Shown here one piece after another: positions 5,640 to 58,677 of a stretch of DNA of 64,000 bases. The notes beneath the pieces are model-generated. The model was given only the letters and a program-made list of their open reading frames with translations, made no database searches and had not been told where the DNA came from. Each line of letters opens with the position of its first letter. The first letter of the stretch is position 1. The DNA is from Candidatus Latescibacterota bacterium (lineage in GTDB: Bacteria; Latescibacterota; UBA2968; UBA8231), in contig CBDAOB010000004.1 of the NCBI GenBank assembly GCA_965197905.1, positions 1,728,001-1,792,000 on the forward strand. Reading direction: 5' to 3'. The position numbers were made by a program, and so were the translations under genes.

Positions 5640-6590
5640 CTACGACGAAGGATCCCGTTGTTTCTTGCGATCCATGGCGCGCACATACGCCCGCGTTCGG
5701 TGGCACCACAGCAGGTAGTCGAAGAAAATCGACGGAACGGGCCCCCGCGGTAAGCACCGAAGCAGGAGCGCAACCGGCACCTGAACAAGGGGCGAAAGCG
5801 CCAGTTGATGCGCCCACCTGACAGGAGCGCTGGGATCCATCAGAAAGCTCAATCGCAACAAAGATGCCAACTCCGGGTGTTTCTCCAGGATGAAGGGTAT
5901 CGATTCCGCCCCGTAGGCGCTCATCAGATCGCACAACTCTGCCAGGCTGCGAAGTTCGTGGTGGTTGGATATGGCGGTCGCTTCGTAATAGAAGGCAACG
6001 CCCGCGGACGACAGCCGATAGCCCAACTCCAGATCTTCACCGCCATAAGCGTGGAAGTCTTCGTCGAATAGGCCGACAGTCACCAACGACTGCCGTCTAA
6101 TCGATGAGTTCCCGGTGACGAAGCAGTTGTAGGGCACCACGCTGCCCGATTCAAACCGGTGCACGCCACGTCCTTCGATATAACGAAACAGGGCGTTAGG
6201 TCGGATACTCGTGGCAAAACGGATATTGCCGATACAGACGCAGCTGGCCTCGTGGATCTGGTGAAAGGACTTGTGGGAATGCAGAAAATCCGGCTCAACG
6301 GTCATGTCCCCATCCAGAAACACCACCACCTCCCCGCGGGCGGCGCGTATCCCTGAATTCCGCGCTTTGGCGCGCCCCTGGTTGACCTCGTGTCGTCGCA
6401 ACAACAGCTGAAACGGTTCGGCAATTGCGCGGAGCTCTTCCACCGTTAGAGCGGGAAGACTGCCGTCGTCGACCACAACGATCTCCACATCCGCCGCCGG
6501 AAACTGTTGCTGAGCCAGACTGTCCAGGGTTGCCCGCAGCCGCGCGGGTTCATTGTAGGTCGGGACGACCACGCTGAGGAACGGTTTCAA
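5640..6590 (-). CDS. Glycosyltransferase family 2
   Basis: SVVVPTYN, VVVDDGS, FLDGD, GGEDLELGYRL; probable TTG start at 6590. Confidence 0.9.
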   Translation of the reverse strand: MKPFLSVVVPTYNEPARLRATLDSLAQQQFPAADVEIVVVDDGSLPALTVEELRAIAEPFQLLLRRHEVNQGRAKARNSGIRAARGEVVVFLDGDMTVEPDFLHSHKSFHQIHEASCVCIGNIRFATSIRPNALFRYIEGRGVHRFESGSVVPYNCFVTGNSSIRRQSLVTVGLFDEDFHAYGGEDLELGYRLSSAGVAFYYEATAISNHHELRSLAELCDLMSAYGAESIPFILEKHPELASLLRLSFLMDPSAPVRWAHQLALSPLVQVPVALLLRCLPRGPVPSIFFDYLLWCHRTRAYVRAMDRKKQRDPSS

Positions 6591-6607
6591 AGCGACGGGC
6601 ACGGTGG

Positions 6608-7726
6608 TCAAAAACGGGCGTAAAGAGCGGTCAGCTTCTCCACCTCGTGCTCCCAACTGTAGGTGCGGGCCGCCACTCGAGCTGCCTCGGCATAGCGAGC
6701 CATACGGTCGGTATCCGCGATCAAGAGATTGACCTGCTCGGCAACTGCGGCGGGATCCCGTGGGTCGGCCAGGATGCCGGCGCCGCTGTTGCGAACGACG
6801 GGGCCTATTTCCGGAAAGTCACTGGCAACTACAGGCAAACCGGCCATGAAGTACTCGAACAGCTTGTTGGGCATGGAATAAAAGAAACTCTTGCCGCTGT
6901 TCTTGATCAGGCACAACCCTACATCGGCAGAGCAGGTGTACTCATGGAGCTCGGCAAACGGAACTCGGGGCAGAAAAAACACCGAGTTGCCCAACCGGCG
7001 CTGGTCGACTTTCTGCCTGAGCTCGGGCTCGCAAGGCCCGCCGCCCATAAGTACGAGCACAGACTTGTCGAACAGTGCGGCCGCATCGATCTGTTCTAGC
7101 AGGCCATTTTCGGTCAAGAACCCACCTTGATACAGGATTACCGGACGCTGGTCGTCCAATCCCAATGTTTCTCTAATGCGGTTGCTGGCGACAGGATCCC
7201 GGAACACGGGCAGATTTCGCAGGACCGTAACCCTATCTAGTCGATAACGCTTCTCCAGCGCCGCTTTGATCCCCTTGCTGACGGTAATCGTATGGTGAAC
7301 CTTTCGTACCAGACGTTGCTCCAGCCAACTCCAGAACCGCTGAATGGTGGGACGGCTGACAACCCCGGACTGTTCTGTCCAGAATTCGTGGGAGTCGTAG
7401 ACCAACAGGGAACCTTGGCGGGTTGCCACCCGCGCCGCGGGCCACAGGGCATCCAGGTCGTGGGCGTGGTAGACATCGGCTGACAGCGAAGGTAGAGCCC
7501 GTGCGGCCTGCCACCAAAAGGATGGGTACAGGAGGCGTAGGGAGCGCCTGCGGTCCACCGGTATTAGACGAGTCTCGAAACGCCGCCACGGCGCTGAGGT
7601 AATTGCACCCGAGAACGATGAAGAGACGATGGATACGCGATGGCCAGCGTCCTGCAGAGCCGTCGCCTCCCGGTAGATCCGCGCGTCGAAACGCAGGTCC
7701 GTAAAGGCGACCATACACACATGCAT
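6608..7726 (-). CDS. Glycosyltransferase family 4
   Basis: YHAHD, VYDSHE, PNKLFEYFMAGLPVVASD. Confidence 0.9.
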   Translation of the reverse strand: MHVCMVAFTDLRFDARIYREATALQDAGHRVSIVSSSFSGAITSAPWRRFETRLIPVDRRRSLRLLYPSFWWQAARALPSLSADVYHAHDLDALWPAARVATRQGSLLVYDSHEFWTEQSGVVSRPTIQRFWSWLEQRLVRKVHHTITVSKGIKAALEKRYRLDRVTVLRNLPVFRDPVASNRIRETLGLDDQRPVILYQGGFLTENGLLEQIDAAALFDKSVLVLMGGGPCEPELRQKVDQRRLGNSVFFLPRVPFAELHEYTCSADVGLCLIKNSGKSFFYSMPNKLFEYFMAGLPVVASDFPEIGPVVRNSGAGILADPRDPAAVAEQVNLLIADTDRMARYAEAARVAARTYSWEHEVEKLTALYARF

Positions 7727-7770
7727 GGTCGAAACTAGAGGGGGGACATCAAGACAAGGCGGGCAGGGAT

Positions 7771-7804
7771 AAAAAAGCAGTCCATCCGATGAAAGATGAA
7801 CTGC
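7771..7804 (-). terminator. Intrinsic terminator of the leftward ncRNA
   Basis: Minus strand GCAGUUCAUC-(8 nt)-GAUGGACUGC-UUUUUU: 10-bp stem with one G.U, then U6. Confidence 0.85.
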
Positions 7805-7986
7805 TCATTCGAGAAAATCAAGAGTGTGGCGATCGTGCGGTGTGTGATCGAGAGCCGCAGACGAGACCTTCAAACGAGGCGGTGTGGGGAGGTATTACTT
7901 TGAAGATCCCGATACCCGAAAAGGGGAATTCGAGTTCTGCGGCACTTCCCGATCATTAGTCACACGCTCAGCGGATCGCCACACTC
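7771..7986 (-). ncRNA. Candidate structured non-coding RNA, family unknown (three-way junction with C-rich loops)
   Basis: Perfect 13-bp closing stem (7822-7834/7974-7986) and four further helices whose G.U pairs work only on the minus strand; TATAAT 6 nt upstream of the first stem base; terminator downstream; no convincing ORF. Confidence 0.75.
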
Positions 7987-7992
7987 GAAGCA

Positions 7993-8011
7993 ATTATACA
8001 CTTTTTTGTGT
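7993..8011 (-). promoter_or_regulatory. Promoter P1 of the ncRNA (-10 TATAAT) overlapped by operator 1
   Basis: TATAAT at 7998..7993; ACAC-TTTTTT-GTGT at 7998-8011; no good -35. Confidence 0.7.
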
Positions 8012-8058
8012 GCGCTACGAAACGTGAACGTATTGCGACTTGCCTACGGTCGACACAC

Positions 8059-8087
8059 AATTTACACACCCCACTGTGTATTGTCAA
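8059..8087 (-). promoter_or_regulatory. Leftward promoter P2 with operator 2 in its spacer
   Basis: TTGACA (8087..8082)-17 nt-TAAATT (8064..8059); ACAC-CCCACT-GTGT at 8066-8079. Confidence 0.7.
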
Positions 8088-8128: not shown

Positions 8129-8157
8129 ATGACACAAAACTGTGTATGCCTTATTAT
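8129..8157 (+). promoter_or_regulatory. Promoter of the XRE gene overlapped by operator 3
   Basis: ATGACA (8129-8134)-17 nt-TATTAT (8152-8157); ACAC-AAAACT-GTGT at 8132-8145. Confidence 0.7.
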
Positions 8158-8204: not shown

Positions 8205-8723
8205 ATGGCATTTGCTGAAATAATAAAGAAAGCACGCAAGCGGTTGCGGCTAAGCCAAGCCAGCCTTGGTGGGGAGATCGGGGTGTGGAACACCTACGTC
8301 GGACAGATCGAGAAGGGGGAAAAGGTCCCCTCAGATGAGGTGGTCATAAAACTCGGGAAGGTTCTCGACCTCAACCTGAACGAGTTATTATTGTCAGCGT
8401 ACAAAGCAAAGGCCGACTCGGCCGAAGCACAAAGCCTGTTCACCCAAATGGAAACCGCACTCAACGACCCTGTACTGCAACAGATCGTTTCTTCCACCAA
8501 CCCCATACACCCGGGCGTACTGGCCGCTTTGAGCGACGAGAATATTCGCGCCGCCCTCACCCAAGAAACATGGAGAGAAAGTTTCTCTCGGTGTTACCGA
8601 ATAAACAGCCGCAAAAAACGGAATATTCAGGCGCTGTTGGCGTTGGTGGAAGCGATGAACGACAAACAGTATTCAGCGATGATGAATCTTTTAGAAGCTA
8701 TGGAGCTAGAAGCAGGAGAGTAA
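8205..8723 (+). CDS. XRE-family helix-turn-helix regulator with an unrecognised C-terminal domain
   Basis: IKKARKRLRLSQASLGGEIGVWNTYVGQIEKGEKVPS..IKLGKVL matches the Cro/C1-type HTH pattern. Confidence 0.88.
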   Translation: MAFAEIIKKARKRLRLSQASLGGEIGVWNTYVGQIEKGEKVPSDEVVIKLGKVLDLNLNELLLSAYKAKADSAEAQSLFTQMETALNDPVLQQIVSSTNPIHPGVLAALSDENIRAALTQETWRESFSRCYRINSRKKRNIQALLALVEAMNDKQYSAMMNLLEAMELEAGE

Positions 8724-8726
8724 TTC

Positions 8727-9257
8727 TTACGGGGTCTGGGGTGCGGCTTCTGCGGCCAAACGCGCTGCTTCTTGTGCCAATCGATCCGCCTCCCGGTTGG
8801 AAAGGACCGACAACACCTTTTCGCGAACGAACGGATTTGGATCGCGCACTGCGGAAAATAGGTACTTATTGCCGTATTTTTCCTCCATCCTGCCCAGTTT
8901 CTCGATGACTTGAAGGCGGATTCCGGGATCCCTGTCTTTGAGCGCTACGCCGAACACTCTGGCCACTTCCTTTTTGGTGCTTTCCCTATCACTCTCGCTC
9001 AGAACGCCCAAAAGCTCAATCGCCTGTGCCCGGACCGCGACGTCGCGATCTCTGAGGGCTCGAGACAGCACTTCCGTAGTGGCGATCTTCTTCTCCGCAC
9101 CAAGCAGAGGAACGAACTTTATGGGTGGCAACGTACGCAAGCTGCAGGCCCCTAGTACAAACCACAACAGGCACAGGACGCCCGCTAAACCTGGATGACG
9201 GTAAACCGGCCGCGGGCAGTTGGCTTTTCCTACTCGACTGAAACGATGCAAGGTCAT
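8727..9257 (-). CDS. HEAT-repeat protein, probable lipoprotein (start uncertain)
   Basis: Three repeats of L.D.D..VR..A/V...L; lipobox-like LGAC. Confidence 0.75.
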   Translation of the reverse strand: MTLHRFSRVGKANCPRPVYRHPGLAGVLCLLWFVLGACSLRTLPPIKFVPLLGAEKKIATTEVLSRALRDRDVAVRAQAIELLGVLSESDRESTKKEVARVFGVALKDRDPGIRLQVIEKLGRMEEKYGNKYLFSAVRDPNPFVREKVLSVLSNREADRLAQEAARLAAEAAPQTP

Positions 9258-9458
9258 ATAGTTAATATCGGTCGTTACCGTAGGTTCTAAAGTCTGGGGA
9301 ACCACGGCGCCGTCGCGAACGTCTACGGCGCAGCAAACCAGCATCGCCAGCGCTTTTGGTGGAGCGCCCAGCTGCCGGTTGGCGCCGTTTTCCTCCTACT
9401 CCACTACGACCAGCTGGCCGTACTTAGAATTAATGGCTGGTCTCCGTCACTGAGCGCT

Positions 9459-58578: not shown

Positions 58579-58677
58579 TGGCGGGAACGTGTGGGAATCG
58601 AACCCACCCAGCGACGCTCTCGCGCCACCGCAACGGATTTGAAGTCCGCGGAGGCCACCAGGCACCCTTCCGCTCCC
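58579..58677 (-). tRNA. selC: tRNA-Sec (anticodon UCA)
   Basis: GGGAGCGG...GCGGACUUCAAAUCCGU...long variable arm...GUGGGUUCGAUUCCCAC...GCCA. Confidence 0.95.

Follow-up and report, generated by a model that had tools for sequence, protein, structure and literature searches.

What is encoded on the minus strand between a glycosyltransferase gene and a divergent regulator gene in this Latescibacterota genome, and how might it act? The window that we analyzed is a 64,000-nt stretch of Candidatus Latescibacterota bacterium (GCA_965197905.1, contig CBDAOB010000004.1, 1,728,001-1,792,000), and all coordinates refer to it unless a genome or locus is named. The host genome is designated G000 and its family f1. 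A preliminary description, made from the letters of the window, had proposed a trans-acting repressor sRNA with two exposed C-rich loops, possibly of a new family, and had named an atypical 6S RNA and an attenuator leader as alternatives.

The RNA core folds into a Y

The core consists of a closed rod that ends in two arms:

7822-7986, minus strand: Y-shaped RNA core of 165 nt, with closing stem, variable rod and three-way junction (folding, covariance model, covariation)
7986-7974/7834-7822, minus strand: 13-bp closing stem (folding)
7914-7935, minus strand: short arm, a 7-bp hairpin with C-rich loop 1, UUCCCCUU (folding)
7862-7911, minus strand: long arm, a 13-bp stem (7911-7899/7874-7862) with the 24-nt loop 2 (folding)

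Inspection of the sequence and refolding placed every stem, loop and terminator of the preliminary description at the same minus-strand positions as before. The minus strand has a minimum free energy of -99.1 kcal/mol (z -9.0), and none of 200 shuffled sequences folds equally well; on the plus strand the energy is -86.7 (z -5.3), and the three-way junction disappears. A covariance model built from 19 sequences, R1, likewise gives the minus strand 163 bits and the plus strand 29. Among 53 distinct homologues, loops 1 and 2 are predicted to be unpaired (means 0.86 and 0.85). The closed rods of the homologues are 154-173 nt long, with a junction that has a hairpin on its 5' side and leaves 0-2 bases unpaired 3' of it, and most of 17 correctly trimmed homologues form the Y when refolded individually. 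The Y-shaped fold is real. Two homologues (L103:3022-3190 and L104:2951-3130) carry an 11-nt tandem duplication within the 3' arm of the closing stem.

The element is single-copy, covarying and confined to one lineage

Using blastn, we found the element in 18 of the 36 further f1 genomes compared and in none of 24 genomes from the other families of the class. The exact loop pattern retrieved 41 records among species genomes, with one match each and labels that include Latescibacterota and Gemmatimonadota. Of 63 other f1 genomes, 46 have exactly one match to model R1, as against none of 86 genomes from 13 other families. Some of the misses are assembly gaps, as at one locus cut by a contig end; several near-complete f1 genomes also give no match, including all three of genus g16, in which the neighboring HEAT-repeat gene was likewise not found. 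A phage origin was considered and set aside: the exact pattern had no match in viral contigs, and the 80 loci listed for a looser pattern, out of at least 120, all failed R1.

The 53 distinct cores combine 45 sense rows of the R1 search with 12 further rows, less 4 identical ones. The search behind the 45 rows took 26 of the 41 pattern loci, with 15 apparent duplicates left out and 11 antisense rows dropped. About half of the 53 homologues belong to one genus, so the counts given below are not independent.

In the 19-row alignment 95.1% of the cells are paired, compared with 39-47% in slid controls. Double changes occur in 10 of 42 pairs and amount to 26 cells against 9.9 in shuffles, a value reached by 0 of 500 shuffles, in a type of control that relatedness inflates and with a structure derived from the same 19 rows. 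Conservation is concentrated in the closing stem and the loops. GUGUG at the 5' end of the core and its CACAC partner are present in 53/53 homologues, and CCC in loop 1 and UCCC in loop 2 in 52/53 each. The full 18-nt core of loop 2 (7892-7875) is kept in 38/53. The ten most divergent members preserve only the closing stem and the short words UCCC/CCC and CUC, and the idea that G.U-compatible loop variation signals one long target was not upheld, as these members retain short words only. The check by homologues and covariation proposed in the preliminary description thus came out in its favor: the stems covary, each genome has one copy, and the element is found across f1.

A non-functional repeat, a MITE or an unannotated small protein gene is highly improbable. 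G000 does contain many unrelated hairpin repeats of 165-170 nt, which would give such a reading some ground, but this element has one copy per genome, fixed synteny and covariation. Dispersed copies, which the preliminary description had named as a sign of a MITE, were not found. The longest ATG frames in the 53 homologues range from 1 to 77 aa and have no common length, which argues against a small protein gene; no reading frame is conserved. We conclude that the locus encodes a single-copy, covarying structured RNA element restricted to one Latescibacterota lineage.

The RNA is new with respect to Rfam. At gathering score, a search of the whole window gave nothing at the element, its sole match being a distant tRNA-Sec (58583-58677, minus strand), and at E up to 10 only one chance fragment appeared; the suggestion of a new family therefore passed the Infernal-type check against Rfam. 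A literature search for a prior description, or for small RNAs of this phylum, returned nothing relevant in a scope of mainly openly accessible papers. The RNA belongs to no known family that we tested, and the motif lists of comparative surveys may bear on this.

A conserved promoter, a terminator and a divergent XRE regulator

The core is embedded in the following features:

5640-6656: GT2 gene after the GT4 gene (Pfam)
6608-7726, minus strand: GT4 glycosyltransferase gene, the downstream neighbor, which follows the RNA in 51/53 homologues (Pfam)
7770-7806, minus strand: intrinsic terminator, hairpin 7806-7775 followed by U's (sequence scan and homologues)
7987-8052, minus strand: non-conserved 5' leader, possibly trimmed (homologue comparison)
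7996-8013, unstranded: O3, an operator-like palindrome of the leader that lies about 66 bp from O2 and overlaps TATAAT 7998-7993 (motif scan)
8059-8087, minus strand: sigma70-type promoter of the RNA, TTGACA-17-TAAATT (consensus scan and homologues)
8064-8079, unstranded: O2, an operator-like palindrome within the RNA promoter, between its -35 and -10 elements (motif scan and homologues)
8129-8157, plus strand: predicted XRE promoter, ATGACA-17-TATTAT (consensus scan only)
8132-8147, unstranded: O1, an operator-like palindrome of the ACAC-N8-GTGT type with one mismatch, inside the spacer of the predicted XRE promoter (motif scan)
8205-8723, plus strand: XRE-family (HTH_3) regulator of 172 aa, divergent from the RNA (Pfam)
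8727-9344, minus strand: HEAT-repeat gene convergent on XRE (Pfam)

A promoter of the form TTGA..-17/18-TAnnnT precedes 52/53 cores, with 4-125 nt from the -10 element to the stem. The preliminary description had instead chosen the TATAAT at 7998-7993. That hexamer is indeed located 6 nt upstream of the first paired G, but it is found within 20 nt of the stem in only 2/53 homologues (the host genome and a congener) and overlaps palindrome O3, and we rejected it as the conserved promoter, which lies 72 nt further upstream. The TATAAT may be a second, genus-specific promoter. From the sequence we infer a transcription start near 8052. The closing intrinsic terminator, by contrast, was called correctly: the terminator region forms a self-pairing hairpin here and in 53/53 homologues, with a U4 tract in 47/53.

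The XRE gene adjoins the RNA in 40/53 homologues. In a structure model of its product (pLDDT 82), only the HTH matches known structures, those of P22 c2/SinR-type repressors, and the all-helical C-terminal part has no clear structural match. Three ACAC-N8-GTGT palindromes, a set that had gone unreported when the non-conserved promoter was chosen, are spaced about 62-68 bp apart in the intergenic region between the RNA and XRE. Among the 52 loci that have the promoter, O2 retains at least 7/8 matches at 37/39 loci with an adjacent XRE and at 0/13 without, for a motif that was defined on XRE-bearing loci; four XRE-less loci retain 6/8. Because a 28-row GT4 tree requires only about three changes of the XRE label, this association represents approximately three events rather than 52. 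An XRE query found nothing in genera g6, g18, g11, g14, g8 and g2, where the RNA persists. The same palindrome also precedes a gene for an XRE-methylmalonyl-CoA mutase fusion that has no RNA beside it, which indicates that the palindrome follows XRE and not the RNA. From the position of the sites, we suggest that XRE is likely a repressor of the RNA and of its own gene. In the fusion, seen in genus g22, the XRE HTH lies N-terminal of the methylmalonyl-CoA mutase domain (L141:444-2297, minus strand, and L142), and 14/14 genomes of this genus have an N-terminal-only XRE match inside a long frame.

We also considered a global or SOS role for XRE and rejected it: LexA-type genes are present, and a matrix of the operator yielded no convincing regulon in G000. 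The best intergenic site outside the locus precedes a ribonucleotide reductase gene and resembles the consensus of the NrdR box. The palindromes at the RNA locus lack the AT-rich center of that box and track XRE.

A second scaffold in families f2 and f4

We examined 20 XRE-related loci, nine of which come from families f2 and f4 (L126-L131, L133, L137 and L138). At these nine, the same promoter and palindromes lie divergent from the XRE orthologue and are followed by a five-hairpin element of about 220 nt, with folding z-scores from -3.5 to -8.7 at the seven loci folded. This RNA has no closing stem. It contains an invariant CUCCCCA in its first loop and both f1 motifs, whose order is unchanged, and it has three exposed C-runs. 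Its own covariance model, R2, finds a single match in 24/30 f2 genomes and 2/18 f4 genomes, in the genera that have a full-length XRE, and in 0/63 f1 genomes, and 18/50 pairs covary in an alignment fitted to that model. Rfam gave no match for the three loci compared.

Are the two RNAs related? Models R1 and R2 do not cross-detect. An nhmmer comparison of f1 with f2/f4 placed the motif region correctly, but only at E 0.2-4. A joint pattern occurs in 32/75 cases for f1 and 3/31 for f2 and is absent from a reversed control; it was built from both groups and is therefore partly circular. Formal homology was thus not established, since the profile searches stay below significance, and position and motifs are the grounds for it. 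Should the two scaffolds prove homologous, they represent a natural case of an sRNA that kept its seed words while its fold was rebuilt, and one that covariance models miss.

The downstream gene and the leader hypothesis

The second scaffold bears on whether the RNA is a cis-acting leader or attenuator of the gene that follows it, GT4 in f1 and a small uncharacterized gene in f2/f4. The GT4 gene follows in nearly all homologues, as listed above, and remains downstream where XRE is missing; at such XRE-less loci the HEAT-repeat gene is the direct upstream neighbor of the RNA. In f2/f4 the 5' arm of the last hairpin has its complement in the CUCCCCA of the first loop, and pairing between them could switch this hairpin; the second motif is paired within the last stem. 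The f2/f4 form may thus be a switch for the small gene that follows. In f1, however, cross-pairing between core and terminator is possible in only 3/53 homologues, blocking the terminator costs 18 kcal/mol, and neither an alternative fold nor a conserved antiterminator was found; two homologues have no GT4 downstream. Between the families, moreover, the downstream gene changes to one for a small protein that has no Pfam family and is not GT4, while XRE and the promoter are kept. The attenuator alternative of the preliminary description is weakened by these observations, and we regard a cis-acting leader as improbable. The start of GT4 (window 7727-7760 and homologues) shows a pyrimidine-rich upstream region with no SD at nearly all loci inspected, and GT4 may have a leaderless transcript of its own.

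Comparison with known RNA families

We compared the RNA with described families. The 6C RNA of Actinobacteria (RF01066) likewise exposes two C-rich loops, for which chaperone-independent pairing with G-rich ribosome-binding sites is proposed; it differs in having six C per loop, whereas here the C-runs are of 3-4, on two arms of a closed rod and in another phylum (PMC6486639). A run of six C occurs in 4/53 homologues, and RF01066 had no match in five genomes at E up to 1, with a weak control (2/14, none above the cut-off). AbcR1/2 of Rhizobiales resembles our RNA in having two distinct C-rich motifs and an adjoining transcriptional regulator gene; its motifs, CUCCCA and GUUCCC, are similar, but its neighbor is of the LysR type rather than XRE, and here both motifs lie in loops (PMC5461406). 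The exact AbcR motifs are found in 0/53 (CUCCCA) and 1/53 (GUUCCC) homologues. LhrC of Listeria and other UCCC-motif sRNAs, including RsaE, are similar in that they present UCCC in loops, use redundant CU-rich sites and are Hfq-independent (PMC4132741). The conserved unpaired UCCC that marks these anti-SD sRNAs is the one found here in loop 2. Unlike LhrC, the present RNA is single-copy, longer and a 5'-3' closed rod with a three-way junction (PMC4132741). The cuckoo RNAs of Alphaproteobacteria share conserved C-rich loop words on variable stems, and their layout is resembled by the multi-hairpin f2/f4 form; they consist of 2-4 adjacent like hairpins, in contrast to the branched rod with two differing loops described here (PMC4615179). 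The cuckoo motif CCUCCUCCC is present in 0/53 homologues.

Identity with SRP RNA, RNase P RNA or tmRNA was rejected, as all three were found elsewhere in the genome. Bacterial Y RNAs go with a Ro60 (TROVE) gene in the same genome, which in most cases is their neighbor; Ro60 was found in 0/5 genomes tested.

Targets and proposed mode of action

Loop 2 shares ACCUCC with the 3' end of 16S rRNA in 41/53 homologues, and AGGAG/GGAGG are the commonest words before gene starts in G000, by heuristic start calls. Pairing of the loops with ribosome-binding sites is therefore possible, as the anti-SD word is shared and the genome uses SD sequences. Hfq was not found in G000, a genome that is 91% complete, and 6C and LhrC RNAs are described as pairing through such C-rich loops without a chaperone (PMC6486639, PMC4132741).

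No preferred target emerged. When loops 1 and 2 were matched against G000, start regions paired no better than coding controls, and loops of shuffled sequence performed equally well or better. The best single candidate is the start of an SDR gene (G000:C3:814682), with a 15/16 nt match where shuffles give 0.05 expected; a close orthologue exists in 1/70 other f1 genomes and the pattern in 2/121 genomes of the class. We rejected this gene as a target because it was chosen post hoc and is not conserved. The complement of loop 2 occurs before an ATG in 126/131 genomes of the class, whether the RNA is present or not, and no target recurs among the 150 rows listed out of 457, none of which come from f1. 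A long conserved complement of loop 2 was also rejected, since the best non-self match in the genome is 14 nt and bears no sign of a ribosome-binding site. The absent target preference fits either many short-seed targets or a protein partner.

We favor, at somewhat better than even chances, an XRE-repressed trans-acting sRNA that pairs its two C-rich loops with G-rich ribosome-binding sites, as 6C, AbcR and LhrC do. The original proposal of a trans-acting repressor is partly supported: the new single-copy covarying element, its promoter and terminator and its exposed C-rich loops hold up, but a conserved target did not emerge. In the scheme that we suggest, XRE would bind the three palindromes, whose spacing of 62-68 bp would suit a looped multi-site complex, until a signal relieves repression. 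Transcription would then run from the sigma70-type promoter of the RNA, starting near 8052 and stopping near 7770, and the product might be trimmed to the closed rod. The exposed loops would pair through short seeds, independently of a chaperone, with the ribosome-binding sites of several mRNAs. With regulator, operator sequence, promoter, RNA and terminator, the locus forms a complete module that can be tested, in an uncultured and apparently Hfq-less group.

Protein-binding alternatives

With its closed rod and a terminal stem of invariant sequence, the RNA looks less like a typical pairing sRNA than like a stable RNA that binds a protein. CsrB, for example, titrates its protein through GGA loops. 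Could the stable rod be a decoy that titrates an RNA-binding protein, such as Rho, a KH/S1-domain protein or a cold-shock protein, through repeated C-rich single strands? The short repeated motifs kept while the scaffold changes, the three exposed C-runs of the f2/f4 RNA, the invariant closing stem and the absence of a conserved mRNA target are all consistent with this. No partner was identified, however, with Ro60 found in 0/5 and CsrA in 1/5 genomes tested, and the published C-rich-loop sRNAs compared here pair with mRNA. We consider a protein decoy unlikely.

An atypical 6S RNA, or a 6S stand-in that binds RNA polymerase, is quite unlikely. In size, closed ends, single copy and own promoter and terminator the RNA resembles 6S RNA (RF00013) and Ms1, but it departs from both in lacking a central unpaired bubble, the feature that mimics an open promoter, and in having a short apical arm with a conserved loop and no model match (PMC9130861). 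The apical arm is only 13 bp, and the element has no match to RF00013 by E-value. Other families of the phylum have 6S-like RNAs that do not resemble it, a 6S RNA would not fit into the short zapA-rny gap, which lies elsewhere, and the f2/f4 counterpart has no closing stem. In favor of a 6S role, the class has no recognizable 6S RNA: RF00013 found nothing in 63 f1 genomes or elsewhere in the class, with a model that matches only 4-5/14 control genomes, and model R3, made from the phylum's own weak 6S matches, found nothing in five genomes (no positive control). A de novo screen of the genome put the RNA at the top of 22 units made up of promoter, rod and terminator. Its length, its closed ends, its single copy and its variable leader would suit a housekeeping RNA, and it shares a long 5'-3' closing stem with 6S RNA, which measures about 160-200 nt. 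Inspection of zapA/rny, model R3 and the de novo screen revealed no better 6S candidate. Thus the 6S alternative of the preliminary description fares poorly on structure and gains from the vacancy in the class.

These two ideas can be combined. The RNA could be a new kind of stable decoy in the empty 6S slot of the class. A protein would grip its invariant closing stem, and its two anti-SD-like arms would act globally by binding to RNA polymerase or the translation machinery; it would be switched on under the control of the XRE repressor, and the sister families would have the same loop words re-mounted on an entirely different scaffold. This combination is rather unlikely. The locus is the first place to look for what replaces 6S RNA in the class.

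Other observations in the genomes

Loci L107-L112, in two other families of the phylum, carry 6S RNAs that are convincing although they fall below the Rfam cut-off. G000 has four ZapA-family genes (C5:2225509, C4:1440572, C3:625898 and C4:1095060) and two RNase Y-family genes (C4:1095406 and C5:1426728). Its dispersed MITE-like hairpin repeats of 165-170 nt end in CTAG (for example C4:425912-426080, C4:363989, C5:2067336 and C3:724792), and a CRISPR-like array with 32-nt repeats spans G000:C4:2144484-2146220. Another single-copy unit of promoter, closed fold and terminator, 154 nt long, lies at G000:C4:1234277-1234430 on the minus strand and is a candidate RNA.
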